64,000 nucleotides of DNA, taken from NCBI RefSeq assembly GCF_003334765.1, contig NZ_QOWT01000001.1. One strand, given 5' to 3'. Shown piece by piece: positions 16,911-53,330 of this stretch. A program made the translations under genes and the position numbers. The DNA comes from Escherichia coli. Its GTDB lineage: Bacteria; Pseudomonadota; Gammaproteobacteria; Enterobacterales; Enterobacteriaceae. How positions within the stretch are numbered: the first letter of the stretch is position 1; each line of letters opens with the position of its first letter. The notes below the pieces were generated by a model. That model was not told where the DNA came from and ran no database searches. It saw only the letters and a list, made by a program, of their open reading frames with translations.

Positions 16911-16973
16911 CTGATGACCACCACGCTTTTTATTGACCATTTTGCACGCAAACTGGAAAACCTGGCGTCGTCA

Positions 16974-16981
16974 TCTATTCT
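16974..16981 (+). promoter_or_regulatory. sigma-S type -10 element of sdsR
   Basis: CTATTCTT resembles the sigma-S extended -10 (CTATACT), about 7 nt upstream of the inferred SdsR 5' end. Confidence 0.45.
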
Positions 16982-16987
16982 TAAAGG

Positions 16988-17090
16988 GCAAGGCAACTAA
17001 GCCTGCATTAATGCCAACTTTTAGCGCACGGCTCTCTCCCAAGAGCCATTTCCCTGGACCGAATACAGGAATCGTGTTCGGTCTCTTTTT
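16988..17090 (+). ncRNA. sdsR: small RNA SdsR (RyeB)
   Basis: GCAAGGCAACUAAGCCUGCAUUAAUGCC...ACCGAAUACAGGAAUCGUGUUCGGUCUCUUUUU matches my recollection of SdsR, ending in an intrinsic terminator. Confidence 0.8.
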
Positions 17091-17224
17091 ATCTGTTAAA
17101 AGCCAGAAGCATTTCCTTCGCTGACTTTATAGTCAACCATAACACACACTCTACTGTCTGAGTCCAGCGTTTTTTAACATTCTTGTTAAGATTATGTGAT
17201 CTTTAGCGCGGGAGGAAAATATTG

Positions 17225-37174: not shown

Positions 37175-38146
37175 TTACTTATCGATTTTGCTGATCAGAT
37201 CCATCATTTTCAGTTTCGGATCGGTGGAAACCTTACGGACTTCCAGCTCAATACCGCGCGCATTCAGTTTCTTGAACGCCTCGATATCTTTTTCATCAAC
37301 CGAAACCGCGTTATTCACCTGGGTTTTACCCTGACGGAATGCCATACCACCGACGTTAACAGAGGTGATTTTCACGCCGCCTTCAACGAGACGCTCTACA
37401 TCTGTTGGGTTGGTAAATAACAGCATTACGCGTTCGCCAGCATATTTCGGGTTGTTGTAGACGCGAATCATTTTGGCAACATCAACTACGTGTGCTGTTA
37501 CGCCCGGAGGTGCAACCTGGGTGAGCAGTGTCTTACGAACGGTATCCGCAGCCACTTCATCACTAACAACAATAATACGGGAGACATTGGTTTCTTTGGT
37601 CCAGCGGGTGGCGACCTGACCGTGAATCAGACGGTCGTCGATACGCGCAAGGCCAATAACCATGTAGTCGTTTGGCCCCATTGGTTTTGCCGGAGTTGGA
37701 GCCGCTTTTGGTGCTGCGGCAGCGGGTGCTGGCGCGGCTTTTTCAACCGGTTTGGCTTTCAGTGCTTTCACGCCTTCACGGCCTGTTTCTACTGCCAGTG
37801 CCACCAGTTCATCAAAGCTTGGGTCATCATCACGGGCCATTAACGTTTCCACGAGCATTGGAATGTTAACGCCTGCAATGACTTCATAATGCTCTTTGTC
37901 GACGACAATGCGGCTGGCAGCATTGAACGGGCTGCCTCCCCATGTATCAACGAGAAACAGCACGCCTTTAGTGGTGTCGAGTTTTGCCAACTGAGCGTTG
38001 TACTTTTCAATCAGCGTTTCGGCATTTTCACCTGGAACGAAATCGATCCAGCCGACGTTTTCCTGCTCGCCTAACAGCATTTCTGCCGTTTTAAGCAACT
38101 GCTCTGCAGCCCAACCATGTGTGCCTATAACAATAGCAATGGTCAC
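37175..38146 (-). CDS. manX: mannose PTS enzyme IIAB
   Basis: ORF 323 aa (MTIAIVIGTHGWAAEQLLKTAEMLLGEQENVGWIDFVPGENAE...) with Ala/Pro-rich linker. Confidence 0.95.
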   Translation of the reverse strand: MTIAIVIGTHGWAAEQLLKTAEMLLGEQENVGWIDFVPGENAETLIEKYNAQLAKLDTTKGVLFLVDTWGGSPFNAASRIVVDKEHYEVIAGVNIPMLVETLMARDDDPSFDELVALAVETGREGVKALKAKPVEKAAPAPAAAAPKAAPTPAKPMGPNDYMVIGLARIDDRLIHGQVATRWTKETNVSRIIVVSDEVAADTVRKTLLTQVAPPGVTAHVVDVAKMIRVYNNPKYAGERVMLLFTNPTDVERLVEGGVKITSVNVGGMAFRQGKTQVNNAVSVDEKDIEAFKKLNARGIELEVRKVSTDPKLKMMDLISKIDK

Positions 38147-38608
38147 TTGCTACCTCCTTTATTATCGTTAACACCTCAACGTGCCAGATGTATTTTTGAA
38201 TCGTCGTCCACAATCGAATCGATTCAGATAAGGGCTACAACCAAAAACCCCTGCGTTTCGCGATTTATTTTAGATATCGAAAAAATTATTTTATGTGATG
38301 AAGATCCGTAATTTAACTTTCGATTAGCAGAAATTTCGAAAGGTAAAATATCCTTGTTACATTCGTTTGCAAAGGAAGGTAAATCTTTGCCAAATCAGAG
38401 GCGTCTCTGATATGTTTAACTCCCGTTTAACAACCATGGAGTATAGGGCAGTAGCCCGCAGTATGGATCGTCACCGACGTCATTTCAGCATCAGGCCTTT
38501 TAACGCCCGCCTTTCTGGCACTCTATGCCGCACCTTTCGTTTGCATTTTGTCGTTACGCCTGCATTATTTCTGGCGTCGAATAGCTATTCCTTAAGCAGG
38601 AGCTTGTC

Positions 38609-40165
38609 ATGGAATTCTTAATGGACCCCTCAATTTGGGCGGGGCTACTCACGCTTGTTGTTCTCGAAATTGTGCTGGGTATCGATAACCTGGTCTTCAT
38701 CGCCATTCTTGCTGACAAACTGCCGCCAAAACAACGCGATAAAGCGCGTTTGCTGGGGTTATCACTGGCGCTGATTATGCGTCTGGGGCTGCTGTCGCTG
38801 ATTTCATGGATGGTCACGCTGACCAAACCGCTATTTACCGTCATGGATTTCTCCTTCTCCGGACGCGACCTGATTATGTTGTTCGGGGGGATATTCTTGC
38901 TGTTCAAAGCAACAACCGAACTGCATGAACGGCTGGAAAACCGCGATCATGATTCCGGCCACGGTAAAGGCTACGCCAGTTTCTGGGTGGTCGTCACACA
39001 GATTGTCATCCTTGACGCCGTCTTCTCGTTGGATGCGGTAATTACTGCAGTAGGGATGGTTAACCATCTGCCGGTGATGATGGCGGCGGTAGTGATTGCG
39101 ATGGCGGTTATGTTGCTGGCATCCAAACCGCTGACGCGATTCGTTAACCAGCACCCCACGGTGGTGGTGCTCTGTCTGAGCTTCCTGTTAATGATTGGTC
39201 TGAGTCTGGTGGCAGAAGGTTTCGGTTTCCACATTCCGAAAGGTTACCTGTATGCCGCGATTGGCTTCTCGATCATCATCGAAGTGTTTAACCAGATTGC
39301 GCGTCGCAACTTTATTCGCCACCAGTCGACTTTGCCGCTGCGAGCGCGTACTGCCGATGCCATCCTGCGTTTGATGGGCGGGAAACGTCAGGCCAATGTT
39401 CAGCACGATGCCGATAACCCGATGCCGATGCCGATCCCGGAAGGTGCATTTGCCGAAGAAGAACGTTACATGATTAACGGCGTACTGACGCTGGCGTCGC
39501 GTTCTCTGCGCGGGATCATGACGCCGCGCGGTGAAATAAGCTGGGTTGACGCTAATCTCGGGGTCGATGAAATCCGCGAGCAACTGCTCTCTTCACCGCA
39601 CAGTCTGTTCCCGGTATGTCGCGGTGAACTGGATGAAATCATCGGTATTGTACGTGCTAAAGAACTGCTGGTGGCGCTGGAAGAGGGCGTTGATGTGGCG
39701 GCGATTGCTTCGGCGTCTCCGGCGATTATCGTCCCGGAAACCCTCGATCCGATCAACCTGTTGGGCGTGCTGCGTCGTGCTCGCGGGAGCTTTGTTATCG
39801 TGACCAACGAGTTTGGTGTGGTACAAGGTCTGGTCACGCCGCTGGATGTGCTGGAAGCCATTGCGGGTGAATTCCCGGACGCTGACGAAACGCCGGAAAT
39901 CATTACTGATGGTGACGGCTGGCTGGTAAAAGGCGGTACAGATTTGCATGCCTTGCAGCAGGCGCTTGATGTTGAGCACCTTGCCGATGACGATGATATC
40001 GCGACGGTCGCGGGCCTCGTGATCTCGGCAAATGGTCACATTCCCCGTGTGGGCGATGTGATTGATGTAGGGCCACTGCATATCACCATCATTGAAGCCA
40101 ATGATTATCGTGTTGATCTGGTTCGCATTGTTAAAGAGCAACCGGCGCACGATGAAGATGAGTAA
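38609..40165 (+). CDS. yoaE: TerC-family membrane protein with CBS pair and CorC/HlyC C-domain (UPF0053) YoaE
   Basis: ORF 518 aa ([40 protein letters not shown]...). Confidence 0.9.
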
Positions 40166-40168
40166 GCG

Positions 40169-41767
40169 TTAACGTAACGGCATAATGGGCGTGATATGTC
40201 CATTATGCCGGGCGGGCGGCGGTTGGCTGCCCGCCAGCCATTTGGGAAAATCACGTAGCGGCATCGGCTGTGCGTACAAATACCCTTGCAAAATATGCAC
40301 GCCATGACGGCGCAAATACTTCGCCTGTTCTTGCGTTTCCACGCCCTCCGCCACCAGTTCAATATTCAGTCTTTGCCCCAGCGCGATGATGATATCGGTC
40401 ACCGTCGAGTTAACCGCGTCAGAACCTATAGCTGCGGTAAATGACTTATCAATTTTCAGCACGTCAGGACGTAATGTTTCAAGCCAGGAAAACGAGCTGT
40501 TGCCGGTGCCGAAGTCATCAATCGCCAGTTTGACGTTTTTACGATGCAGCTCGCGGGCAATCCGATAATCAACATCCAGTAAGGCATCGCGTTCGGTGAT
40601 TTCGAGGATCAGTTGCTGAATCGGGTGAGCGCTAAACCAGTACTGATTGAGATCTTTTATCAGCACACCACGGCGAAAATGGCTGGGTGCGACGTTAATG
40701 CCAACATGAAACTGACTACTCATCGGGAAAACATGGCGCTGACGAATGGTTTCTGCCATCACATAGCGGGTCAGTGGCACAATTAAATGATGTTCTTCCG
40801 CGATAGGAATAAACACATCCGGTGAAATCCAGCCCTGACGCGGATTGTTCCAGCGCAGCAAAATCTCTACACCAATACATTGCTGGCTGCGCGCATTAAG
40901 CAAAGGCTGACAGAACAATTCGAACTCATGTTGCGCCAGGCCCAGATTGATTTCGCGGGAAAAGCTCATTCGGTAAGCGGTCGCCAGCCAGGCGATGTAG
41001 CCCACCAGTAAACTTAGCAGCACCGCCAGCGGTAATTGTGTTGGAAGATAGTGCCATGCCAGCGCCGTAGCCCCCGGACCATTAACGTTAATGGTAAAAG
41101 GAAAGCGTTGCGAAGAAACCTGATAGTTTTCATTGTCTTCAGGTTGCGGAAGGGAATCTACCAGCCCATTACCATAGAGCAAATGCCGTTTGTCCACCGT
41201 CAGGCTGGCGCTACTGATTTGCGGCAGTTGTGGCTCAAGCAGCATTGCCGTCAGTAAGTCGATGTTAATCATCTCCATGACCCCAGCATTGCTACTGCCC
41301 GCTGCAGGCGTCCATTGAATCAAAACCGGACTGCCTTTAATCAGGGCACGGTCGATCGTCAGGCGTAAAAGTGGTTGCGGTGCAGGAAGTTCAGCCAGAA
41401 TGTCCACGACGGGCACATTGCGATAACCAAAAATGCTGGAGCAATAAAGTGTGCCGTCTTGCACCAGGCCAATGGATCGCACAGTTTGGAGTTTTGCCGC
41501 CTGTTTACGTAATGGCAAATGGGCGACAGAGCAGGGCAGACCAATCAGCGGAAGCAAGACTTCGCTACCTGCCTGTAGGGGAAGCAGTACTTTATCTAAT
41601 TCCTCTACAGCGTGATTGGCGAATTGTACTACCCGTTGTTGATTTAAGTTACGCTGTGAAATAAATCGCACGCTCAGGGTCGAAGCGAGCGTAACGAGTG
41701 CGCAAATCGTACAAACAATCATTCGATTACGACGATAGGTTTTAATGATCCGTTGTGCTTTTTGCAT
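40169..41767 (-). CDS. pdeD: c-di-GMP phosphodiesterase PdeD (YoaD), CSS-motif sensor plus EAL domain
   Basis: ORF-track frame 40169..41797; start placed at ATG 41765-41767 (MQKAQRIIKTYRRNRMIVCTICAL...) giving 532 aa; EAL signature (EITERDAL). Confidence 0.85.
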   Translation of the reverse strand: MQKAQRIIKTYRRNRMIVCTICALVTLASTLSVRFISQRNLNQQRVVQFANHAVEELDKVLLPLQAGSEVLLPLIGLPCSVAHLPLRKQAAKLQTVRSIGLVQDGTLYCSSIFGYRNVPVVDILAELPAPQPLLRLTIDRALIKGSPVLIQWTPAAGSSNAGVMEMINIDLLTAMLLEPQLPQISSASLTVDKRHLLYGNGLVDSLPQPEDNENYQVSSQRFPFTINVNGPGATALAWHYLPTQLPLAVLLSLLVGYIAWLATAYRMSFSREINLGLAQHEFELFCQPLLNARSQQCIGVEILLRWNNPRQGWISPDVFIPIAEEHHLIVPLTRYVMAETIRQRHVFPMSSQFHVGINVAPSHFRRGVLIKDLNQYWFSAHPIQQLILEITERDALLDVDYRIARELHRKNVKLAIDDFGTGNSSFSWLETLRPDVLKIDKSFTAAIGSDAVNSTVTDIIIALGQRLNIELVAEGVETQEQAKYLRRHGVHILQGYLYAQPMPLRDFPKWLAGSQPPPARHNGHITPIMPLR

Positions 41768-41897
41768 GCGGGCCACCCTGTAAGCGTATGGCGACAAACG
41801 CCTGACGCAACAGTGGAAGTGTAGTGGGGAATATTACAGCAGACGAGAAAGCGGGTATAAATTCGCCCATCCGTTGCAGATGGGCGAGTAAGAAGTA

Positions 41898-43262
41898 TTA
41901 GTCACACTGGACTTTGATTGCCAGACCACCGCGTGAGGTTTCGCGGTATTTGGCGTTCATGTCCTTACCGGTTTCGTACATCGTTTCGATGACCTTATCC
42001 AGCGAGACGCGCGGTGCACTGGTGCGGCGCAGAGCCATCCGCGCGGCGTTAATCGCCTTCACAGAGGCAATGGCATTACGCTCAATGCACGGCACCTGAA
42101 CCTGCCCTGCAACCGGGTCGCAGGTTAAACCAAGGTTGTGTTCCATGCCAATTTCCGCCGCCACGCAAACCTGTTCCGGGCTACCGCCCAGCAGTTCTGC
42201 AAGACCCGCAGCAGCCATTGAACAGGCAACACCCACTTCGCCCTGGCAACCAACTTCCGCACCGGAAATAGAGGCGTTCATTTTATACAATGCACCAATC
42301 GCGCCCGCTGCCATAAAGTAACGGGTATAGATGTCCGGGCTGACCGATTCAATAAAGTGGTCATAGTAAGCCAGCACTGCCGGAACGATACCGCAGGCAC
42401 CGTTGGTTGGCGCAGTTACCACACGACCACCGGCGGCGTTTTCTTCGTTAACTGCCAGCGCAAACATGTTTACCCAGTCAATGACATTCATCGGATCGTT
42501 AGACAGTTTATCGCTGGAAACCAGCATCCGGCGCAGGGCAGACGCACGACGTGGCACGCGCAGCGGGCCTGGCAGTACACCTTCGGTGTTCATCCCGCGA
42601 TCGATACATGCCTGCATGGTTTGCCAGACATGCGCGAAATACTCGTCGATCTCTTTCTTGCTGTGCAGCGCCAGTTCGTTCTGCATAGCGAGACCAGACA
42701 GCGAATAGCCGGTTTCATTACAGTACGCGAGCAGTTCGGTGGCAGATTTGAACGGATACGGCACGCTTACTTCGTTGGCAGCATCCTGACCAAAGTGTTC
42801 TTCATCGACGATAAAACCGCCGCCGATGGAATAATAAGTTTTGCTGTAGACGACTTCATCGCCGTTATAGGCGTGGATTTGCATACCGTTTTCATGCAGC
42901 GGCAGGTTGCCGTTATGAAAACGCATCCCGTTGTCGCGCGGGAAATCCACTTCATGCCGTCCCTGTGCCAGCAGCAGACGTTCGCGCTCTTCTACGTCGC
43001 GAATAAAACCGGGAATACTGTCGATATCCACGGTGGCAGGTTCGTTACCTGCAAGACCCATAATAATGGCGATATCGGTGTGGTGGCCTTTACCCGTCAG
43101 CGACAGTGAACCATAAACGTCCACGGCAACGCGAGTAACGCTATCCAGTAAGCCTTTTTCGACCAGATCATCGACGAACTGTTTACCTGCCTTCATAGGC
43201 CCTACGGTATGGGAAGATGAGGGACCAATCCCCACCTTAAACATGTCGAATAGACTAATCAC
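41898..43262 (-). CDS. sdaA: L-serine dehydratase 1
   Basis: ORF 454 aa ([37 protein letters not shown]...). Confidence 0.95.
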
Positions 43263-43445
43263 GATAATACTCCTGACAAGGTGACTGGACTTCCAGTAAC
43301 GAACTAATAACAGCGCATAGTGTAAGAGGGAACGCGGCGACTGGCTTAACTATTCACATGAATTAAACTAATCAAAAACCGCGATTTAACTAATATTGCG
43401 ATGATTGTCTCAAGTAGTGTTTTGTAGATGTAAAGATAAGTATAG

Positions 43446-44024
43446 TCAGGGTTTCACACCAATTTGCAGCGCCAGCTCACGAATTATGCCTGCGGTCATT
43501 CCCCATACAAAATACTGTTCGTACCAGGACAGCCATACCCGATGTGAATCACCACGGCGGTAGATATCTAAAGGGTGATAACGACCCAGATGTAATGCCT
43601 GGGCGAGCGGCATTTCAAACACCGCCGAGACTTCATCTTCACTGGCGCGATACGGCAGATCGGGCGGGATAATGCCGACCACTGGGGTTACCTGGTAGCC
43701 AGTGACGCTATCGACGGGCGGCAGCACGCCGATAACTTCAACGGCGGAAGGCGGTATAGCGACCTCTTCTTCAGCTTCGCGCAGCGCGGCGGCGATAGCT
43801 GATGCGTCCGTGTCATCGACTGCACCTCCAGGGAATGCCACTTGTCCAGCGTGTTTACGCAGATGAATCGAACGCTGAGTCAGCAACAACCCCGGTTGCG
43901 GTCGACGGACGATGGGGATTAACACAGCAGCCTGACGATGATTTAGGGTTTCCCGGTTAATTTGCGGGCGCAAAAGTTGAAAGCGCGATAAAAAATCATC
44001 AAGCGTCAGGCTACGGTATTCCAC
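43446..44024 (-). CDS. nudL: Nudix hydrolase NudL (CoA pyrophosphatase-like)
   Basis: ORF 192 aa with Nudix box ([22 protein letters not shown]). Confidence 0.9.
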
Positions 44025-44027
44025 GTC

Positions 44028-45389
44028 TTACTTCTCCAGTTGCTTCAGGATACGATTAACTTTATCAAAAGTTTCCTGATATTCCGCTTCTTCCTGGCTA
44101 TCGGCGACAATTCCACCGCCCGCAGAGCAGAAAATTTGTCCGTTAATGGCAGTCAGCGTGCGGATAGTAATACTGGTATCCATGTTGCCGCAAAAGCTCA
44201 AATAGCCAATGCTGCCGCACCAGGCATTGCGTCGCTGCGGTTCCAGTTCGTCGATAATTTCCATAGCCCGTACTTTCGGAGCCCCGGTTATTGAGCCACC
44301 AGGAAAAGCTGCGCGCAGCAGATCGCTGGCGTGTAACTGTTCTGGTAGTTGCGCCGTTATGGTGCTGACCAGATGATGCACGGCAGGGAAGGGTTCCACC
44401 ACGAACAGCTCTGGTACTTTTACCGAACCTGCTACGGCAACACGACCGATATCATTACGCATTAAATCGACAATCATCAGATTTTCGGCACGATCTTTCG
44501 CTGAGTTCGCCAGTTTTACTGCTTGTTTGCTATCTTCCTGAGGATCGGGCAGGCGTGGTAGCGTGCCTTTAATCGGGCGGGTCTGGATTTCACTATTATC
44601 ACAAAGAATAAACCGCTCTGGCGAAAGGCTTAAAATTGCACCCTGTTCAAGACGTAAAAAAGCGCTAAATGGCGCGCGGTTGGCCTGATTAAGCTGAAGG
44701 AATGCCTGCCATTCATCGCCAGAATAGGTCGCATGAAAACGTTGGGCGAGATTCACCTGATAGCAATCACCGCTGTGCAGATATTCCTGTACCTGGCGAA
44801 ATTTTTCGCCGTACTGCTCGCGGGTCATATTGGATTGCCAGTCGGAAGTGAGCGTGAAATCTTCCTGCGGCGAGAATTGCTGGCTTTCCAGCCAGGCCCG
44901 ACGGGCATTGACATCATTATGACTCAGCAAAGAAACTGTATGACGCTGGTGGTCGACAATGAGCGCCCAATCGTAGATACCCACTGCCATATCCGGCAGA
45001 ACGATATCTTGTTCCGCAATTTCTGGCAGTGACTCAAAACGGCGGCCCAGATCGTAGCCAAACAACCCCAGTGCGCCGCCCTGAAATGGCAAATCTTCGT
45101 TATGCGTTGGGCGAATGTCTGCGCGATCCAGCACCTGCTGGAGCACCTGTAGCGGGTCATCAGTGGTCGTTGTGCGTTTTTCGCTTTCACTAACAACGGT
45201 TTCTTTACCGAAAGTGGTTAAAGTGCAAATCGGCTCGGCGACCACAATATCAAAGCGGCTATACGGATGATCGGCATAGCCGGAGTGTAAAAGCATCGCC
45301 CACGGCAGGTGGCTTAAGCGGGAGAAATAAAATTCAGCGGCGTCCTGACGCCAGGGTAAAGTAATCACAGCGGGAGATAACGTCTTCAT
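44028..45389 (-). CDS. pabB: aminodeoxychorismate synthase component I
   Basis: ORF 453 aa, chorismate-binding enzyme family (MKTLSPAVITLPWRQDAAEFYFSRLSHLPWAMLLHSG...). Confidence 0.93.
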   Translation of the reverse strand: MKTLSPAVITLPWRQDAAEFYFSRLSHLPWAMLLHSGYADHPYSRFDIVVAEPICTLTTFGKETVVSESEKRTTTTDDPLQVLQQVLDRADIRPTHNEDLPFQGGALGLFGYDLGRRFESLPEIAEQDIVLPDMAVGIYDWALIVDHQRHTVSLLSHNDVNARRAWLESQQFSPQEDFTLTSDWQSNMTREQYGEKFRQVQEYLHSGDCYQVNLAQRFHATYSGDEWQAFLQLNQANRAPFSAFLRLEQGAILSLSPERFILCDNSEIQTRPIKGTLPRLPDPQEDSKQAVKLANSAKDRAENLMIVDLMRNDIGRVAVAGSVKVPELFVVEPFPAVHHLVSTITAQLPEQLHASDLLRAAFPGGSITGAPKVRAMEIIDELEPQRRNAWCGSIGYLSFCGNMDTSITIRTLTAINGQIFCSAGGGIVADSQEEAEYQETFDKVNRILKQLEK

Positions 45390-45462
45390 CAGTCCTGACT
45401 CTACTGGCTATGTGCCGGGTAGCATGAAATAATTAGCGCCAACAATTTAGCAGGAGTTAACA

Positions 45463-45642
45463 ATGTTTGCAGGTTTACCTTCACTCACCCATGAACAGCA
45501 GCAAAAAGCTGTCGAGCGGATCCAGGAACTGATGGCACAAGGGATGAGCAGCGGCCAGGCAATCGCGCTGGTGGCAGAAGAGCTGCGTGCCAACCACTCC
45601 GGCGAGCGAATCGTGGCGCGTTTTGAGGATGAAGACGAGTAA
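45463..45642 (+). CDS. yoaH: UPF0181 small protein YoaH
   Basis: 59-aa ORF ([59 protein letters not shown]) with RBS AGGAG; not in ORF track (<60 aa). Confidence 0.85.
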
Positions 45643-45696
45643 CACACTAATCCGTATCGATTTCGTTATAGAAGCCGATGATCATTTGATTGTGAG

Positions 45697-45735
45697 AAAA
45701 AGGACGCTTTTTATATGTGATTAAAAGCGTCCTGA
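45697..45735. terminator. bidirectional hairpin between convergent yoaH and yoaC
   Basis: stem aaggacgctttt/aaaagcgtcct around an 11-nt loop, with flanking A/T runs. Confidence 0.55.
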
Positions 45736-45761
45736 CCCATTTATGCTGATATAAATTTAAC

Positions 45762-46061
45762 TCAGACCAGTGCTTTTAGTTCTTCCTGCATATATGTTGA
45801 AAAGTATTCAGGATTTTTAATCACAGAACGTTCACCTGTCTCCATTTTTTTTGCCCATCCAACCATTTTTTCCGTGAACCCAGGGTTCCAGCCTTCCTGG
45901 TCAGCTCGCGCCGTAATATCAGCGGCACTCGCGGGTACTCCCAGTTCTTTTAAATATTTAAAGATTCCCTTCGCCGTGCTTTCATTCATCGAACTTGGTG
46001 TTGGCGCTGATACATCCATGGCACCAATGAAATCCAGGGCTTTATCTATTACAGCAGGCAT
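45762..46061 (-). CDS. yoaC: DUF1889 protein YoaC
   Basis: ORF-track frame 45762..46121; start placed at ATG 46059-46061 (MPAVIDKALDFIGAMDVSAP...), which has an AAGGAT RBS 7 nt upstream; 99 aa. Confidence 0.75.
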   Translation of the reverse strand: MPAVIDKALDFIGAMDVSAPTPSSMNESTAKGIFKYLKELGVPASAADITARADQEGWNPGFTEKMVGWAKKMETGERSVIKNPEYFSTYMQEELKALV

Positions 46062-46482
46062 ATTCTTATCCTTAAAATTAACCATGTTATCGATAAGGCT
46101 ATATATGACCTTAATTTGCATCTAATATCAAAGGGATTATAACGATATGGCACGAGTTAACCTGTTGACATTCAGGTGTTTTAAAGGTAGCAGCTCATGG
46201 TGTGTTATCCAGTAAGATGGAGAAATTTAACGGTCAGTCCGCACGCTATAACCAGATTGTTCAGCTAAGAAAGAAAACCAGAGTTGCTAATCAAAGGGCG
46301 AACACAACGGCATGTTTATGTTTATTTATATAGTTAGTTTTATAGATAAAATTGAAATTATAAATATAAATAATGAATTAGCAGAAGCATCAACAGTAAT
46401 ATCTTATTCTCTGGTCGATTTATGTAAAACCGACCAGTATTATCGATAAATTATCGTCTGACTTATTTTGCTTCGATAAAGC

Positions 46483-46827
46483 TTACACCGCAGCCACAAT
46501 CTTAATTTCAACTTTATACTTCGGGTTCATCAAACCCGCTTGTACCGTGCAGCGCACCGGCGCATGACCCGCGACAACCCAGGCATCCCACGCTTTATTC
46601 ATCGCCGCGAAGTCGTTTTTATCGGCCAGGAAAATGGTGGCATCCAGAATGCTCGATTTATTGCTGCCCTGTTTTTCCAGCACGGCGTCAATCTGTGCCA
46701 GCGTGTTGGCGGTTTGCTCAAAGGCATCGGCGTCGAGGTTTTCCGGTACACCAGTGTAGTAGAGCGTGTTGTTGTGGATTACTACATCAGACCAGCGGGC
46801 TTCAGCATCGATACGAACGATAGTCAT
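46483..46827 (-). CDS. yoaB: RidA/YjgF-family protein YoaB
   Basis: ORF-track frame 46483..46875; start placed at ATG 46825-46827 (MTIVRIDAEARWSDVVIHNNTLYYTGVPEN...) giving 114 aa. Confidence 0.85.
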   Translation of the reverse strand: MTIVRIDAEARWSDVVIHNNTLYYTGVPENLDADAFEQTANTLAQIDAVLEKQGSNKSSILDATIFLADKNDFAAMNKAWDAWVVAGHAPVRCTVQAGLMNPKYKVEIKIVAAV

Positions 46828-46932
46828 CATTTTGTCCTCATTATACTTCCATTTTCGTGCTGCAAAGACTGCCACAATGTGAGGTCGCCGTCACCACTTC
46901 AACTGGCGAAAGCGCCCTCATCCTGACATAAT

Positions 46933-46952
46933 CCCTGTTCAAATCAACAGGG
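46933..46952. promoter_or_regulatory. candidate LexA box overlapping yoaA RBS
   Basis: ccCTGTtcaaatcaACAGgg, CTGT-N8-ACAG core ending 9 nt before the yoaA GTG start. Confidence 0.5.
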
Positions 46953-46958
46953 GGTAGT

Positions 46959-48869
46959 GTGACGGACGATTTTGCACCAGACGGTCAGCTGGCGAAAGCG
47001 ATACCAGGCTTTAAGCCGCGAGAACCACAGCGACAGATGGCGGTAGCCGTCACCCAGGCGATAGAAAAAGGCCAGCCGCTGGTGGTGGAAGCAGGAACCG
47101 GTACGGGCAAAACCTACGCTTACCTGGCTCCTGCGCTGCGGGCGAAAAAGAAAGTCATTATCTCGACCGGCTCAAAAGCGTTGCAGGATCAGCTCTACAG
47201 CCGCGATTTGCCAACAGTCTCAAAGGCATTGAAATATACGGGCAACGTGGCGCTGCTGAAAGGGCGCTCAAACTACCTCTGCCTCGAACGTCTCGAACAG
47301 CAGGCGCTGGCGGGGGGCGATCTGCCGGTACAAATCTTAAGCGATGTGATCCTGCTGCGCTCCTGGTCTAATCAAACAGTCGATGGTGATATCAGCACCT
47401 GCGTCAGCGTGGCGGAAGATTCACAGGCGTGGCCGCTGGTCACCAGCACCAACGACAACTGTCTTGGCAGCGACTGCCCGATGTATAAAGATTGCTTTGT
47501 GGTCAAAGCACGTAAAAAAGCGATGGACGCCGATGTGGTGGTGGTAAACCATCATCTCTTTCTGGCGGATATGGTGGTTAAAGAGAGTGGATTTGGCGAA
47601 CTGATCCCGGAAGCGGACGTCATGATCTTCGACGAAGCCCACCAGCTACCGGACATTGCCAGCCAGTATTTTGGTCAGTCACTCTCCAGTCGACAACTGC
47701 TCGACCTGGCAAAAGACATCACCATCGCCTACCGCACCGAATTAAAAGACACCCAGCAGTTACAAAAGTGCGCTGATCGTCTTGCCCAGAGTGCGCAGGA
47801 TTTTCGTCTGCAACTCGGTGAGCCAGGTTATCGCGGTAACCTGCGTGAGCTGTTAGCTAATCCGCAAATTCAGCGGGCATTTTTACTGCTCGATGACACC
47901 CTGGAACTTTGTTATGACGTGGCGAAACTGTCACTGGGGCGTTCCGCCTTGCTGGATGCGGCATTTGAGCGCGCCACGTTGTATCGCACACGGCTGAAGC
48001 GGCTAAAAGAGATCAATCAGCCGGGCTACAGCTACTGGTACGAATGCACTTCGCGCCATTTTACTCTGGCTCTCACGCCGCTCAGCGTGGCGGATAAATT
48101 CAAAGAGTTAATGGCGCAAAAACCCGGTAGCTGGATCTTCACCTCAGCAACGCTGTCGGTGAACGACGATCTGCATCATTTCACCTCGCGGCTTGGCATC
48201 GAACAGGCCGAGTCGTTGCTGTTGCCCAGCCCATTTGATTACAGCCGCCAGGCGTTACTCTGTGTGCCGCGCAATCTGCCGCAAACCAACCAGCCAGGTT
48301 CTGCTCGCCAGTTAGCGGCAATGCTGCGACCGATCATCGAAGCTAACAACGGTCGTTGTTTTATGCTTTGTACCTCGCACGCCATGATGCGCGATCTGGC
48401 CGAGCAGTTCCGCGCTACCATGACGCTTCCTGTATTGTTGCAGGGGGAAACCAGCAAAGGGCAACTGTTGCAGCAATTTGTCAGCGCCGGTAATGCGCTT
48501 CTTGTGGCAACCAGCAGTTTCTGGGAAGGGGTGGACGTGCGTGGCGATACATTGTCATTGGTAATTATCGACAAATTGCCGTTTACCTCGCCGGATGATC
48601 CACTGTTAAAAGCGCGCATGGAAGATTGTCGTTTGCGCGGTGGCGACCCGTTCGATGAAGTGCAACTACCAGATGCCGTCATTACTCTCAAACAGGGGGT
48701 AGGGCGACTGATTCGCGACGCCGACGATCGTGGCGTGCTGGTGATTTGTGACAATCGGCTGGTGATGCGTCCTTACGGCGCGACGTTTCTCGCCAGTCTG
48801 CCGCCCGCGCCACGCACCCGTGACATTGCCCGTGCGGTTCGTTTCCTTGCGATACCATCCTCCAGGTAA
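46959..48869 (+). CDS. yoaA: DinG-family ATP-dependent DNA helicase YoaA
   Basis: GTG-initiated ORF 636 aa (MTDDFAPDGQLAKAIPGFKPREPQRQMAVAV...), Walker A AGTGTGKT, Fe-S Cys cluster, DEAH box. Confidence 0.92.
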   Translation: MTDDFAPDGQLAKAIPGFKPREPQRQMAVAVTQAIEKGQPLVVEAGTGTGKTYAYLAPALRAKKKVIISTGSKALQDQLYSRDLPTVSKALKYTGNVALLKGRSNYLCLERLEQQALAGGDLPVQILSDVILLRSWSNQTVDGDISTCVSVAEDSQAWPLVTSTNDNCLGSDCPMYKDCFVVKARKKAMDADVVVVNHHLFLADMVVKESGFGELIPEADVMIFDEAHQLPDIASQYFGQSLSSRQLLDLAKDITIAYRTELKDTQQLQKCADRLAQSAQDFRLQLGEPGYRGNLRELLANPQIQRAFLLLDDTLELCYDVAKLSLGRSALLDAAFERATLYRTRLKRLKEINQPGYSYWYECTSRHFTLALTPLSVADKFKELMAQKPGSWIFTSATLSVNDDLHHFTSRLGIEQAESLLLPSPFDYSRQALLCVPRNLPQTNQPGSARQLAAMLRPIIEANNGRCFMLCTSHAMMRDLAEQFRATMTLPVLLQGETSKGQLLQQFVSAGNALLVATSSFWEGVDVRGDTLSLVIIDKLPFTSPDDPLLKARMEDCRLRGGDPFDEVQLPDAVITLKQGVGRLIRDADDRGVLVICDNRLVMRPYGATFLASLPPAPRTRDIARAVRFLAIPSSR

Positions 48870-48926
48870 TTTGTTACGGAGTATGGTATGATGCGCGCCT
48901 TTTTATTGATCTAAGCACGAAGACCC

Positions 48927-49622
48927 ATGCGAATTCTGGCTATCGATACCGCGACAGAGGCCTGCTCTGTCGCCCTGTGGAACGACGGTACTGTCAACGC
49001 TCATTTTGAGCTTTGCCCTCGTGAACATACTCAACGAATCTTACCGATGGTGCAGGATATCCTGACCACCAGCGGAACTTCCCTGACTGATATTAACGCT
49101 CTGGCTTACGGGCGCGGCCCCGGTAGCTTTACTGGCGTGCGCATTGGTATTGGCATCGCGCAAGGGCTGGCGCTTGGCGCGGAATTACCGATGATTGGCG
49201 TCTCCACGCTAATGACGATGGCGCAAGGGGCGTGGCGCAAAAACGGCGCAACCCGCGTGCTGGCAGCCATTGACGCGCGAATGGGCGAAGTTTACTGGGC
49301 CGAATATCAGCGTGATGAAAACGGTATCTGGCACGGTGAAGAAACCGAAGCCGTACTCAAACCCGAAATCGTCCATGAACGAATGCAACAGCTTTCCGGC
49401 GAATGGGTGACGGTAGGGACGGGCTGGCAAGCTTGGCCGGATCTCGGTAAAGAGAGCGGGCTGATTTTGCGCGATGGCGAAGTGTTACTGCCTGCTGCTG
49501 AAGATATGCTGCCGATTGCGTGTCAGATGTTTGCTGAGGGTAAAACGGTGGCGGTGGAACATGCCGAACCGGTTTATTTACGTAACAACGTCGCATGGAA
49601 GAAACTTCCGGGCAAAGAATGA
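48927..49622 (+). CDS. tsaB: tRNA t6A37 threonylcarbamoyltransferase subunit TsaB (YeaZ)
   Basis: ORF 231 aa ([21 protein letters not shown]...). Confidence 0.93.
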
Positions 49623-49661
49623 ATCTTAAGAGTATGCCCTGAGAAAAAAAGGAGTCGCACC

Positions 49662-50243
49662 ATGGCGGTTCAAAAGAATGTTATCAAAGGCATACTGGCA
49701 GGTACGTTTGCGCTAATGCTGAGCGGTTGTGTCACTGTGCCGGACGCCATTAAAGGCAGCAGTCCCACGCCGCAACAAGATTTAGTTCGGGTGATGAGTG
49801 CGCCGCAGCTGTACGTTGGTCAGGAGGCACGCTTTGGTGGCAAAGTGGTTGCGGTACAAAACCAGCAAGGGAAAACTCGCCTGGAAATTGCTACCGTACC
49901 GCTGGACAGCGGAGCCAGACCGACGCTGGGAGAACTTTCTCGCGGTCGCATTTATGCCGATGTGAACGGTTTTCTGGACCCGGTGGATTTCCGTGGACAA
50001 CTGGTTACGGTAGTCGGGCCAATCACTGGTGCGGTTGACGGCAAAATCGGCAATACGCCCTATAAATTTATGGTGATGCAAGTAACGGGTTACAAACGTT
50101 GGCATTTAACCCAGCAGGTGATTATGCCGCCTCAGCCGATTGATCCATGGTTTTATGGCGGTCGTGGCTGGCCCTATGGCTACGGCGGATGGGGCTGGTA
50201 TAATCCCGGCCCCGCGAGAGTACAAACAGTTGTAACTGAATAA
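49662..50243 (+). CDS. yeaY: Slp-family outer-membrane lipoprotein YeaY
   Basis: ORF 193 aa with lipoprotein signal peptide (LSGC lipobox). Confidence 0.88.
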
Positions 50244-50272
50244 TTGCTTGTTTTTAAAGAAAAAGAAACAGC

Positions 50273-50289
50273 GGCTGGTCCGCTGTTTC
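50273..50289. promoter_or_regulatory. FadR operator (distal site) upstream of fadD
   Basis: GGCTGGTCCGCTGTTTC matches the FadR motif CTGGTC-N-G..TGTT; overlaps a hairpin downstream of yeaY. Confidence 0.5.
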
Positions 50290-50358
50290 TGCATTCTTAC
50301 GGTAAAGATAAAAATAAATAGTGACGCGCTTCGCAACCTTTTCGTTGGGTAATTATCA

Positions 50359-50375
50359 AGCTGGTATGATGAGTT
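50359..50375. promoter_or_regulatory. FadR operator (proximal site) upstream of fadD
   Basis: AGCTGGTATGATGAGTT, FadR-like CTGGT...TGAGTT, about 70 nt upstream of fadD start. Confidence 0.5.
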
Positions 50376-50447
50376 AATATTATGTTAACGGCATGTGTAT
50401 CATTTGGGGTTGCGATGACGACGAACACGCATTTTAGAGGTGAAGAA

Positions 50448-52133
50448 TTGAAGAAGGTTTGGCTTAACCGTTATCCCGCGGACGTTCCGACGGAGATCAA
50501 CCCTGACCGTTATCAATCTCTGGTAGATATGTTTGAGCAGTCGGTCGCGCGCTACGCCGATCAACCTGCGTTTGTGAATATGGGGGAGGTAATGACCTTC
50601 CGCAAGCTGGAAGAACGCAGTCGCGCGTTTGCCGCTTATTTGCAACAAGGGTTGGGGCTGAAGAAAGGCGATCGCGTTGCGTTGATGATGCCTAATTTAT
50701 TGCAATATCCGGTGGCGCTGTTTGGCATTTTGCGTGCCGGGATGATCGTCGTAAACGTTAACCCGTTGTATACCCCGCGTGAGCTTGAGCATCAGCTTAA
50801 CGATAGCGGCGCATCGGCGATTGTTATCGTGTCTAACTTTGCTCACACACTGGAAAAAGTGGTTGATAAAACCGCCGTTCAGCACGTAATTCTGACCCGT
50901 ATGGGCGATCAGCTATCTACGGCAAAAGGCACGGTAGTCAATTTCGTTGTTAAATACATCAAGCGTTTGGTGCCGAAATACCATCTGCCAGATGCCATTT
51001 CATTTCGTAGCGCACTGCATAACGGCTACCGGATGCAGTACGTCAAACCCGAACTGGTGCCGGAAGATTTAGCTTTTCTGCAATACACCGGCGGCACCAC
51101 TGGTGTGGCGAAAGGCGCGATGCTGACTCACCGCAATATGCTGGCGAACCTGGAACAGGTTAACGCGACCTATGGTCCGCTGTTGCATCCGGGCAAAGAG
51201 CTGGTGGTGACGGCGCTGCCGCTGTATCACATTTTTGCCCTGACCATTAACTGCCTGCTGTTTATCGAACTGGGTGGGCAGAACCTGCTTATCACTAACC
51301 CGCGCGATATTCCAGGGTTGGTAAAAGAGTTAGCGAAATATCCGTTTACCGCTATCACGGGCGTTAACACCTTGTTCAATGCGTTGCTGAACAATAAAGA
51401 GTTCCAGCAGCTGGATTTCTCCAGTCTGCATCTTTCCGCAGGCGGTGGGATGCCAGTGCAGCAAGTGGTGGCAGAGCGTTGGGTGAAACTGACCGGACAG
51501 TATCTGCTGGAAGGCTATGGCCTTACCGAGTGTGCGCCGCTGGTCAGCGTTAACCCATATGATATTGATTATCATAGTGGTAGCATCGGTTTGCCGGTGC
51601 CGTCGACGGAAGCCAAACTGGTGGATGATGATGATAATGAAGTACCACCAGGTCAACCGGGTGAGCTTTGTGTCAAAGGACCGCAGGTGATGCTGGGTTA
51701 CTGGCAGCGTCCCGATGCTACCGATGAAATCATCAAAAATGGCTGGTTACACACCGGCGACATCGCGGTAATGGATGAAGAAGGATTCCTGCGCATTGTC
51801 GATCGTAAAAAAGACATGATTCTGGTTTCCGGTTTTAACGTCTATCCCAACGAGATTGAAGATGTCGTCATGCAGCATCCTGGCGTACAGGAAGTCGCGG
51901 CTGTTGGCGTACCTTCCGGCTCCAGTGGTGAAGCGGTGAAAATCTTCGTAGTGAAAAAAGATCCATCGCTTACCGAAGAGTCACTGGTGACTTTTTGCCG
52001 CCGTCAGCTCACGGGATACAAAGTACCGAAGCTGGTGGAGTTTCGTGATGAGTTACCGAAATCTAACGTCGGAAAAATTTTGCGACGAGAATTACGTGAC
52101 GAAGCGCGCGGCAAAGTGGACAATAAAGCCTGA
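50448..52133 (+). CDS. fadD: long-chain fatty-acid-CoA ligase
   Basis: ORF-track frame from 50382; annotated-length 561 aa starts at TTG 50448 ([22 protein letters not shown]...); AMP-binding signature [12 protein letters not shown]. Confidence 0.88.
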
Positions 52134-52153
52134 GCGTTAAGTCAGTCGTCAGA

Positions 52154-52178
52154 CGCCGGTTAATCCGGCGTTTTTTTT
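52154..52178 (+). terminator. intrinsic terminator downstream of fadD
   Basis: stem cgccgg/ccggcg followed by T8. Confidence 0.85.
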
Positions 52179-52202
52179 GACGCCCACTAAAGAGAAAACA
52201 AT

Positions 52203-53330
52203 TTGAATTACCAAATGATTACCACGGACGATGCGCTGGCTTCTTTGTGTGAAGCCGTCCGTGCCTTTCCGGCGATAGCCCTGGATACTGAATTTGTTCG
52301 TACGCGCACTTATTACCCGCAGCTGGGGTTGATTCAACTTTTCGATGGCGAGCATCTGGCGCTAATCGATCCACTCGGGATCACCGACTGGTCACCGCTG
52401 AAAGCGATCCTGCGCGATCCGTCCATCACAAAATTTCTCCATGCAGGCAGTGAAGATCTGGAAGTGTTCCTCAATGTCTTTGGCGAATTACCACAACCCT
52501 TGATTGACACGCAAATCCTTGCTGCCTTCTGCGGACGCCCGATGTCATGGGGTTTCGCTTCCATGGTGGAAGAGTATTCCGGCGTTACGCTGGACAAGAG
52601 TGAATCGCGCACCGACTGGCTGGCCAGACCGCTGACCGAACGTCAGTGTGAATACGCAGCGGCGGATGTCTGGTATCTGTTACCGATCACCGCCAAGCTT
52701 ATGGTAGAAACGGAGGCCTCCGGCTGGCTACCTGCGGCGCTGGATGAATGCCGCCTGATGCAAATGCGTCGTCAGGAAGTCGTTGCGCCGGAAGATGCCT
52801 GGCGTGATATCACCAATGCCTGGCAATTACGCACACGCCAACTGGCCTGTCTGCAACTGTTAGCCGACTGGCGACTGCGCAAGGCGCGAGAGCGCGATCT
52901 GGCGGTGAACTTTGTCGTGCGTGAAGAGCATTTGTGGTCGGTAGCGCGTTATATGCCGGGAAGTTTAGGCGAACTGGACAGCCTGGGTTTATCCGGTAGC
53001 GAAATCCGCTTTCACGGTAAAACGCTGCTAGCGCTGGTGGAAAAAGCGCAGACATTGCCGGAAGATGCCTTACCGCAGCCGATGCTTAACCTGATGGACA
53101 TGCCGGGTTATCGTAAAGCGTTTAAAGCGATTAAGTCGCTGATTACTGACGTGAGCGAAACGCATAAGATCAGCGCCGAATTGCTGGCATCGCGTCGGCA
53201 AATCAACCAACTGCTGAACTGGCACTGGAAACTGAAACCGCAGAACAATTTGCCGGAGCTGATTTCCGGCTGGCGTGGTGAGCTGATGGCGGAAGCATTA
53301 CACAATTTATTGCAGGAATATCCGCAGTAA
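52203..53330 (+). CDS. rnd: ribonuclease D
   Basis: ORF 375 aa beginning at TTG (MNYQMITTDDALASLCEAVRAFPAIALDTEFVR...), DEDDy exonuclease plus HRDC. Confidence 0.9.
   Translation: MNYQMITTDDALASLCEAVRAFPAIALDTEFVRTRTYYPQLGLIQLFDGEHLALIDPLGITDWSPLKAILRDPSITKFLHAGSEDLEVFLNVFGELPQPLIDTQILAAFCGRPMSWGFASMVEEYSGVTLDKSESRTDWLARPLTERQCEYAAADVWYLLPITAKLMVETEASGWLPAALDECRLMQMRRQEVVAPEDAWRDITNAWQLRTRQLACLQLLADWRLRKARERDLAVNFVVREEHLWSVARYMPGSLGELDSLGLSGSEIRFHGKTLLALVEKAQTLPEDALPQPMLNLMDMPGYRKAFKAIKSLITDVSETHKISAELLASRRQINQLLNWHWKLKPQNNLPELISGWRGELMAEALHNLLQEYPQ

Follow-up and report, generated by a model that had tools for sequence, protein, structure and literature searches.

At which codon does translation of rnd, the gene for RNase D, begin in Escherichia coli, and do the signals around the terminator just upstream of it control that step? 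A sequence-only reading of this locus had proposed that rnd initiates at a UUG shortly after the fadD terminator, and that a rare initiation codon next to a terminator hairpin implies tight, structure-dependent translational control. We analyzed the locus within the 64,000-nt stretch of E. coli DNA referred to here as the window. The window sequence is 100% identical to that of E. coli K-12 at the fadD-rnd junction, and the coordinate map was fixed by NC_000913.3, in which fadD ends at 1888061-1888063 and rnd starts at 1887991. Features are listed in Table 1. The interval originally singled out, 52154-52210, spans the 3' part of the hairpin through codon 3 of rnd; the full feature extends over about 52086-52217.

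Table 1. Positions of sequence features at the fadD-rnd junction (window coordinates)
Feature	Position	Strand	Evidence or remark
Frozen synonymous block A, fadD codons CGA GAA, -45 to -40 of the predicted rnd promoter	52086..52091	+	Zero synonymous variation in 76 distinct sequences
SroD sRNA (Rfam RF00370), last 42 nt of fadD plus terminator hairpin	52092..52177	+	cmscan, Term-seq
Predicted rnd promoter -35 hexamer GTGACG (4/6 vs TTGACA), within the fadD CDS	52096..52101	+	Frozen block CGT GAC GAA, 52095-52103
Predicted rnd promoter -10 hexamer GACAAT (4/6; A2 and T6 present)	52119..52124	+	Codons GAC AAT invariant wherever the residues are kept
TSS of rnd (monocistronic operon), on the T of fadD's TGA stop	52131	+	SMRT-Cappable-seq, RegulonDB
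Outer helix 5' arm CGUCA, pairs with 52178-52182	52147..52151	+	Covariation
Intrinsic terminator stem-loop, core GACGCCGG / UUAAU / CCGGCGUU	52151..52173	+	Pattern scan, fold energy, covariation
U8 tract, terminator tail and published U-rich translational enhancer in read-through rnd mRNA	52171..52178	+	Conservation, Term-seq, reviews
Outer helix 3' arm UGACG, bulges U52173-U52177	52178..52182	+	Covariation, fold
In-frame TAA closing the rnd frame upstream	52188..52190	+	In-frame translation
Weak Shine-Dalgarno AAGAG, 8 nt before UUG	52190..52194	+	Conservation, duplex energy with 16S 3' end
UUG initiation codon of rnd	52203..52205	+	Comparative start-codon counts, onset of 3-base periodicity
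rnd CDS (RNase D, 375 aa plus stop)	52203..53330	+	ORF list, 1YT3, NF008089, NC_000913.3
In-frame AUG (Met5)	52215..52217	+	Start in most RefSeq/PGAP annotations; most likely an internal residue

Initiation codon of rnd

In the list of open reading frames, the 375-aa rnd frame (MNYQMITT...) is opened by TTG. In-frame translation places stops at 52131, 52161, and 52188, and because the last of these, a TAA, stands only five codons upstream, TTG 52203 is the first possible start. The sole other candidate is the in-frame ATG at codon 5, which would give a protein of 371 aa. What is found is an in-frame UUG with a Shine-Dalgarno (SD) sequence 8 nt ahead of it and with any earlier start impossible. 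The two candidates predict different N-terminal peptides, NYQMITTDDALASLCEAVR (with or without Met) for the UUG form and MITTDD... for the ATG form.

Start codons were compared across 69 distinct Enterobacteriaceae fadD-rnd junction sequences. The rnd start codon is TTG in 65 of them, GTG in 4, and ATG in none. All positions from -7 to -1 before the TTG vary freely, and a three-base periodic constraint sets in at TTG 52203. Codons 2 to 4 change only at third positions (in 19, 27, and 23 of the 69 sequences, respectively), which indicates that these codons are under coding constraint. Farther upstream, the AGAGA of the SD region is invariant or nearly so, and its duplex with the 16S 3' end has a predicted energy of -2.9 kcal/mol in E. 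coli (mean of -3.7 kcal/mol over the 69 sequences). Distant rnd orthologs start at GTG, GTG, GTG, TTG, and ATG; one distant ortholog, L085, is ambiguous in that it is called at an upstream ATG and a GTG occupies the homologous position. Position 3 keeps its aromatic residue (Tyr/Phe) in RNase D representatives down to about 35% identity. Within E. coli, 61-mers containing the TTG match exactly in 5392 of 5426 genomes, and the ATG version of either major haplotype had no match among the same 5426 genomes. A T6-ATG variant in Enterobacter supplies an ATG upstream of the TTG; it was rejected as a start, as it lacks both conservation and an SD sequence and in some cases is out of frame or soon meets a stop.

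Translation from AUG 52215 would instead produce a 371-aa RNase D and reduce the TTG to a mere upstream Leu-type leader triplet. That codon is canonical and is present in 68 of the 69 sequences, but it is ATT in the remaining one (L049), and its place is taken by Leu or Phe in distant orthologs that begin with GTG or TTG at the homologous position. No SD sequence lies within range of it in any of the 69 sequences (about 0 kcal/mol), the SD pairing preceding the TTG instead, and both the purely third-position variation of codons 2 to 4 and the retention of Tyr/Phe3 in distant orthologs speak against an N terminus at residue 5. Of 8 complete E. coli RefSeq genomes sampled, 7 place the rnd start at ATG5, and 371 aa is the length of 12 of the 15 listed cluster members, whereas the curated K-12 record (NC_000913.3, rnd CDS 1886864..1887991), UniProt, and the Protein Data Bank all use the UUG start. 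RNase D of the window is identical to chain A of PDB 1YT3, itself the 375-aa form, at 375 of 375 residues. Of the two protein profiles, TIGR01388 aligns from residue 5 (546 bits, cut-off of 299, residues 5 to 372), as a start at AUG5 would have it, and the NCBIfam equivalog NF008089 spans residues 1 to 375 (751 bits, cut-off of 516). The supplement of the TetRP initiation-profiling study has no rnd entry. Speaking against the UUG, a small hairpin, AUUUG/CAAAU, is predicted at 52201-52216, and in one folding context it leaves the UUG only 3% unpaired. Taken as a whole, an RNase D that begins at AUG5 appears very improbable, while minor dual initiation at that codon may occur. N-terminal sequencing in the 1988 NAR paper on rnd is said to have agreed with the UUG. 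Sequence comparison confirms a start at UUG 52203 and not at the ATG that follows four codons later, in agreement with the curated K-12 record, with 1YT3, and with the original reading. Automated (PGAP-type) annotation most likely places the rnd start four codons short.

Promoter and transcription start site

The rnd gene appears to be driven by its own weak sigma-70 promoter, lying in the last 40 nt of fadD and composed of GTGACG as the -35 and GACAAT as the -10 element. At 8 of 12 consensus positions and a spacing of 17 nt, this predicted promoter fell below the 9/12 threshold of the promoter scan and hence was not listed by it. Both hexamers coincide with frozen synonymous sites of fadD. 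Ten fadD codons show zero synonymous variation, and 8 of these cluster in the last 16 codons of the gene (P = 2e-12), where they underlie the predicted -35, -10, and -45 positions of the rnd promoter. The block around -45 (block A) could be an UP-like element or a factor-binding site. SMRT-Cappable-seq reports operon b1804 with a transcription start site (TSS) at 1888063 on the reverse strand, marked "same" as that in RegulonDB. This corresponds to window position 52131, which is 7 nt downstream of the -10 hexamer and leaves a leader of 72 nt. With the fadD stop TGA at 52131-52133, rnd transcription begins on the stop codon of the upstream gene.

A different arrangement, in which rnd is expressed mainly from transcripts that run on from fadD and its UUG is used by coupling or reinitiation after fadD, is suggested by the two genes being adjacent, co-oriented, and in the same reading frame. 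All 78 Enterobacteriaceae loci whose sequence extends upstream of rnd keep this synteny, as do some distant loci. However, 69 nt separate stop from start, with two more in-frame stops and a stable hairpin in between, termination at the U-run is strong, and SMRT-Cappable-seq has the rnd operon beginning at 1888063 and fadD as a separate unit. Orthologs that have no fadD upstream (L084 and L086) still begin with GTG or TTG. The constructs of Zhang and Deutscher reportedly started at 52131, without the fadD promoter and ORF. We give this arrangement almost no credence and retain transcription of rnd from its own predicted promoter.

A terminator in the rnd leader

The hairpin and T8 form a working terminator that is common to the fadD mRNA, SroD, and the rnd leader. 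Its DNA sequence is AGACGCCGG-TTAAT-CCGGCGTTT, giving 9 pairs, 6 of them G-C, around a 5-nt loop, with a predicted stem energy of -15.3 kcal/mol. A simple pattern scan for terminators found 1 where 1.2 were expected in shuffled sequence and is not significant alone. Despite this, the element is real, because Term-seq ends, a match to the Rfam sroD model, and covariation of the stem all identify it. Term-seq 3' ends at 1888017, 1888018, and 1888020 (window 52177, 52176, and 52174, or T4 to T7) have 38,000 to 52,000 reads, and the data set labels this site as the primary 3' end for sroD as well as for fadD. The GC-rich stem-loop is immediately followed by the U-tract inside which these transcripts end in vivo. 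Most of these abundant ends may derive from fadD transcripts. Across 69 distinct Enterobacteriaceae sequences, the stem is 99.3% paired and includes two compensatory pairs (C-G to U-A and G-C to A-U). T8 or T6AT is found in 69 of 69 sequences, 11 to 12 nt ahead of AAGAG.

The sequence-only reading had placed this T8 about 25 nt before rnd, and the distance is exactly 24 nt (52179-52202). It was also right to see a working terminator there. To call it the fadD terminator beside rnd was incomplete, as with the TSS upstream at 52131 the element sits inside the rnd 5' UTR and is the 3' end of SroD as well. An assignment of the hairpin to rnd instead of fadD was rejected, since L084 and L086 lack both hairpin and U-run and keep GTG or TTG; from these two cases only, the terminator appears to travel with fadD. 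The 72-nt rnd leader thus carries the full intrinsic terminator, and RNase D is encoded only by transcripts that read through it; in the proposed mechanism, rnd's own promoter would be attenuated accordingly.

SroD was recognized over its full length (model positions 1 to 86) by RF00370 in cmscan, with 115.2 bits against a gathering score of 50. To our knowledge, no target or function of SroD has been described. A sigma-70 promoter for its 5' end at 52092 was sought and rejected, as there is no conserved -10 hexamer at the right distance, and processing of the fadD mRNA is the more likely origin. Because this 5' end lies upstream of the rnd TSS, SroD is better explained as a product of the fadD 3' end than as the rnd leader. 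In overlapping the last 42 nt of fadD and ending at its terminator, it resembles those 3'-UTR-derived sRNAs whose terminator is also that of the mRNA upstream.

An additional helix brackets the hairpin and the U-run. This outer helix is paired in 84.9% of cells compared to 29 to 50% in slid controls, and 4 of its 5 pairs show changes on both sides. Variants of the 3' arm are of six kinds, found across genera, and in every kind pairing with the cognate 5' arm is kept or improved. Its predicted pair probability is 0.2 to 0.76 depending on the folding context, and its formation requires that transcription has passed the terminator. The idea that it frees the SD from the U-run was tried and rejected: arm mutants and the compensatory double mutant, folded in silico for the 69 species, shifted SD accessibility only marginally and inconsistently (0.65 versus 0.59 to 0.64 on disruption and 0.67 on restoration). 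We tentatively suggest, while thinking it rather doubtful, that the outer helix is a functional part of the rnd leader that turns the spent fadD/SroD terminator into a platform, e.g., for S1 or Hfq binding or for 5'-end stabilization, which would set RNase D dosage together with the non-AUG start. If true, this would be an undescribed dual-use terminator-enhancer module.

Translational control of rnd

Several properties of the leader point to rnd expression being limited at translation. The read-through rnd mRNA has an intrinsically poor ribosome-binding site, made up of the UUG start and the weak AAGAG. In reporters, UUG gives 6- to 8-fold less expression than AUG. The U8 tract, about 12 nt upstream of the SD, acts as a ribosome-recruiting, probably S1-dependent enhancer, a role taken from the literature: in reviews citing Zhang and Deutscher (1992), rnd is a UUG gene, its U-run is a U-rich translational enhancer in vivo, and the effect is credited to the U-run as a ribosome-binding enhancer and not to the stem. 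In predicted folds of read-through leaders, U52173-52177 are unpaired with a probability of 0.55 to 0.73, in line with a single-stranded enhancer tract. The net outcome would be a low level of an exoribonuclease that depletes tRNA when overproduced, and the UUG may have been kept by selection to hold RNase D expression down.

The earlier proposal of translational control survives in this form, as a limit set by the UUG and the weak SD; its structure-dependent part is not supported, given that 30 nt lie between the end of the hairpin and the start codon and that folding predicts a mostly unpaired SD (0.75 to 0.95 in the ensemble). The stem itself is said to have been dispensable in the 1992 PNAS experiments of Zhang and Deutscher. 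A hairpin or alternative leader fold that gates the UUG and SD, as in a riboswitch, thermosensor, or attenuator, would be consistent with the conserved and covarying outer helix, with the complementarity of the U-run to the purine-rich SD region (the two are paired in some minimum-energy folds), and with a Term-seq 3' end within the 5' UTR, which is attenuator-like. Nevertheless, RNAalifold recovered the terminator stem alone, with no antiterminator or anti-SD fold in the leader, only 20 nt ahead of the stem leave no room for a sensor, and disruption or restoration of the outer helix in silico barely altered SD accessibility. No Rfam cis-regulatory family matched the fadD-rnd leader region, and an alternative pairing between GCGUUAAG and the U-run, specific to E. 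coli, was discarded because the partner sequence is not conserved. The literature likewise credits the positive effect to the U sequence. We consider such gating unlikely, and with 20 nt from TSS to stem and no conserved antiterminator, nothing found here shows tight or conditional control. The combined explanation of a UUG start, a weak promoter proper to rnd, a terminator in its leader, and a poor ribosome-binding site enhanced by U8 is the one in which we have high confidence.

The rnd upstream region has been described previously (Zhang and Deutscher, NAR 1988; JBC 1989 264:18228; PNAS 1992 89:2605). As cited in later papers, that work presents the same locus, with a UUG start, a promoter and an SD separated by a GC-rich hairpin and eight U residues, and a U-run on which translation depends, and nothing essential is different here. 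The UUG start of rnd after the fadD terminator is a correct but ordinary observation that was already known, having been published in 1988 to 1992. The present analysis adds conservation statistics across genera, a promoter footprint in the synonymous sites of fadD, a connection to SroD and Term-seq ends, the covarying outer helix, and the discrepancy of RefSeq start sites.

Other systems share parts of this arrangement. A/U-rich, S1-dependent enhancers, such as that of the fepB leader with its GUG start, and ACA/CA-rich ones are described as pyrimidine- or A/U-rich single-stranded tracts that raise 30S binding next to a weak non-AUG ribosome-binding site; in contrast to these, the rnd tract is at the same time the U-tail of a functioning intrinsic terminator. 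The AUU of infC (IF3) is, like the rnd codon, a rare and inefficient start that is conserved where the product level must be set, but infC is autoregulated, with IF3 discriminating against its own AUU. We know of no feedback of RNase D on its own UUG, and our data suggest none. Leader-terminator attenuators and leader-derived Sro RNAs likewise have a terminator between TSS and ORF and abundant short terminated RNAs, but attenuators differ in that no antiterminator or sensor is detectable in the rnd leader.

The practical point is one of annotation, with an ATG in automated pipelines and a UUG in curated records. The fadD-rnd junction is a compact case of overlapping signals, in which the synonymous sites of fadD accommodate a predicted promoter for rnd and a single terminator is shared by an mRNA, an sRNA, and the rnd leader. 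RNase D is a tRNA-directed exoribonuclease whose overexpression reduces both tRNA pools and the rate of growth. The rnd gene, in which a U-rich enhancer compensates for a weak ribosome-binding site with a UUG start, is therefore a textbook case of dosage control at the level of translation.

The rnd start codon at the fadD junction

The rnd ORF was described in the sequence-only reading as opening at a TTG shortly past the fadD terminator, and this is accurate, with 24 nt between the T-run and the TTG. Because the rnd frame has upstream in-frame stops at 52131, 52161 and 52188, the last of which bars an earlier start, TTG 52203 is the earliest start possible, and codon 5, an in-frame ATG (52215), is the sole alternative. 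Over 601 nt spanning the site, the sequence has 100% identity to E. coli K-12, and it is single copy in 5426/5426 complete E. coli genomes, where it is annotated as fadD and rnd. The rnd product is identical across 375 residues to E. coli RNase D (PDB 1YT3), and a profile search matched it to NCBIfam equivalog NF008089 over residues 1 to 375. In the curated MG1655 record, rnd occupies 1886864..1887991, i.e., from the TTG, and the fadD stop is at 1888061-1888063, which fixes the window-to-genome coordinate map. The UUG start itself has long been published.

Features of the fadD-rnd junction (window coordinates)
Feature	Position	Strand	Basis or remark
Frozen block CGA GAA (fadD)	52086-52091	+	No synonymous variation; CGA is a rare Arg codon
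Frozen block CGT GAC GAA (fadD)	52095-52103	+	No synonymous variation
Candidate sigma-70 -35, GTGACG	52096-52101	+	17-nt spacer to -10
Frozen codon AAA (fadD)	52113-52115	+	No synonymous variation
Frozen block GAC AAT (fadD)	52119-52124	+	No synonymous variation
Candidate sigma-70 -10, GACAAT	52119-52124	+	7 nt ahead of mapped start site
fadD stop TGA	52131-52133	+	Sequence
Outer helix arms CGUCA / UGACG	52147-52151 / 52178-52182	+	Covariation
Hairpin AGACGCCGG-TTAAT-CCGGCGTTT	52151-52173	+	Sequence, pattern scan
T8 run, hairpin tail	52171-52178	+	Sequence
AAGAG (Shine-Dalgarno [SD]-like)	52190-52194	+	11 nt past T-run, 8 nt ahead of TTG
TTG start of rnd ORF	52203-52205	+	ORF of 375 aa, end 53330

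Eighty Enterobacteriaceae rnd loci were taken, of which 79 include the start codon and usable upstream DNA (L053 begins inside rnd), giving 69 distinct junction sequences. The start position is TTG in 65/69, GTG in 4/69 and ATG in none (0/69). All changes in codons 2, 3 and 4 are at the third base (19/69, 27/69 and 23/69 sequences), while each of the 7 bases ahead of the start is variable, so coding constraint begins exactly at the TTG. Pairing with the 16S rRNA 3' end is -2.9 kcal/mol ahead of the TTG (mean, -3.7) versus ∼0 kcal/mol ahead of the codon-5 ATG, a contrast that holds in 69/69 sequences. In one species (L049), codon 5 is ATT. Two major 61-nt TTG haplotypes together cover 5392/5426 E. 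coli genomes by exact match, and ATG versions of both had no match among the 5426. A 1988 rnd sequencing paper reportedly included N-terminal sequencing in agreement with UUG.

Six distant orthologs (46 to 54% identity) start at GTG (three), TTG (one) or ATG (one), the sixth being ambiguous (in L085 the call is an upstream ATG, and the homologous position holds GTG). In place of Met5, all six carry Leu or Phe, and aromatic residue 3 recurs in representatives down to ∼35% identity. Two of these orthologs without fadD upstream (L084, 2420-2540; L086, 1890-2045) start at GTG or TTG, and neither has the hairpin or U-run. The non-AUG start seems to predate and outrange its association with the terminator.

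A small predicted hairpin at 52201-52216 (+), AUUUG-AAUUAC-CAAAU, pairs the UUG with codons 4 and 5, leaving the start 3% unpaired in one fold. It is kept by a CAG variant (G-U pair) and broken in GTG-start species, a pattern confounded with coding constraint.

Annotation of the start site

RefSeq/PGAP starts rnd at the ATG (371 aa) in 7/8 sampled complete E. coli genomes (L001 and L089 to L094), whereas the TTG (375 aa) is the start in NC_000913.3, UniProt RND_ECOLI and PDB 1YT3; 371 aa is also the length of 12/15 named protein-cluster members. The older TIGR01388 profile starts at residue 5 of RNase D, which may be the reason for the ATG call. Judged from these sequence comparisons, the 371-aa model is most likely too short at its N terminus. 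A systematic start-site error for rnd in RefSeq is probable, a modest by-product of the analysis.

In Enterobacter spp. (L025 to L029, L032 and L035), a T6-A-T run creates an ATG right past the terminator (ttttttATGggc), ∼27 nt ahead of the rnd start and, in some, in frame with no intervening stop; a gene caller picked its equivalent in L085 (1648). Since this ATG lacks an SD and is not conserved, we rejected it as the rnd start, and it is probably an annotation trap. Neighboring fadD is also annotated from a TTG (50448-50450 [+], TTG AAG AAG GTT TGG, with GGTGA upstream), so that two adjacent genes share this rare start; a longer in-frame fadD ORF opens at ATG 50382.

Terminator, SroD and the outer helix

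Published Term-seq data contain abundant 3' ends at genome positions 1888017, 1888018 and 1888020 (38,000 to 52,000 reads, three conditions), labeled as primary for both fadD and the sRNA gene sroD, 27 to 29 nt upstream of the rnd ORF. These positions are T7, T6 and T4 of the T8 run. In the 69 sequences, the stem is 99.3% paired and has two pairs in which both partners changed; the hairpin and T-run are a working terminator. The Rfam sroD model (RF00370) matches 52092-52177 (+) at 115 bits (gathering score, 50). SroD begins (52092) within fadD, of which it covers the final 42 nt, and stops at the T-run. This 5' end is 39 nt ahead of the rnd transcription start and has no conserved -10 hexamer at a suitable distance, so SroD resembles a 3' fragment processed from fadD mRNA. 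One terminator is common to fadD, SroD and the rnd leader. A further Term-seq 3' end (genome 1887883, ∼36,500 reads, one condition) falls 108 nt into the rnd ORF at codon 37 (window ∼52311, +); it could reflect processing, or premature (Rho-dependent?) termination tied to poor translation. Elsewhere in the window, Rfam models matched the overlapping antisense sRNAs SraC/RyeA (-) and SdsR/RyeB (+) at 16950-17094 and a cspA-type thermoregulator leader at 32583-33043 (+, 135 bits).

A covarying outer helix, a previously unreported detail and a modest by-product, joins the five bases before the hairpin to an arm beginning at the last U of the T-run. The paired fraction of cells in an unbiased MAFFT alignment is 84.9%, versus 29 to 50% with a slid partner; both sides change at 4/5 pairs, and in all six 3'-arm variants (TGACG, TGGTG, GGGTG, GGACG, TGGCA and TGCCG), pairing with the cognate 5' arm is kept or improved. 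Only read-through RNA can contain the helix, in which U52173-52177 would be bulged out. It was not seen by eye in two more distant fadD-rnd loci. The idea that it shields the SD from U-run pairing gave a negative test result.

Promoter and translational control of rnd

GTGACG-17 nt-GACAAT was picked as the best sigma-70 candidate ahead of the conservation and start-site data; it scores 8/12, just short of the promoter-scan threshold. In a codon-wise scan of fadD in 74 to 76 distinct Enterobacteriaceae sequences, 10/475 degenerate codons at conserved residues lacked synonymous variation; eight of the 10 fall in the final 16 codons (hypergeometric P = 2e-12), compared to only 2/461 among the remaining comparable codons. 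The eight coincide with the predicted -35 and -10 and with about -45 of the rnd promoter. For rnd, listed as the single-gene operon b1804, SMRT-Cappable-seq reported a reverse-strand start site at 1888063, marked "same" as in RegulonDB. This corresponds to window position 52131, 7 nt past GACAAT, and a promoter of rnd itself precedes the hairpin. Within a leader of 72 nt, the terminator and U8 consequently occupy +21 to +48, an architecture that Zhang and Deutscher are said to have described. The frozen sites could, in part, also act for SroD, whose 5' end is unpaired over 52092-52105; this is compatible with a promoter role. That the promoter shows up in frozen synonymous sites is a modest by-product.

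The proximity of UUG and terminator had been read as tight, structure-dependent translational control. Expression is indeed set at translation, and the ribosome-binding site is inherently weak (UUG and a 3-bp SD core), but the structure dependence is wrong or unsupported. Leader folding, RNAalifold and leader length gave no indication that structure gates rnd conditionally: the SD is predicted to be 75 to 95% unpaired, RNAalifold returned the terminator stem alone, and only 20 nt separate the transcript start from the stem.

In a reporter study that cites rnd work among its precedents, UUG was 6- to 8-fold weaker than AUG or GUG. Reviews cite rnd as UUG initiated, with a translational enhancer, and describe its U-rich region as binding 30S subunits and raising rnd translation in vivo. 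RNase D overexpression lowers tRNA pools and growth rate. The logic of rnd is most likely constitutive low dosage: a weak promoter and a leaky leader terminator, together with a poor start codon that may be held by selection, as switching between TTG and GTG but never ATG in 79 Enterobacteriaceae loci suggests, and a U-tract that would give just enough ribosome recruitment.
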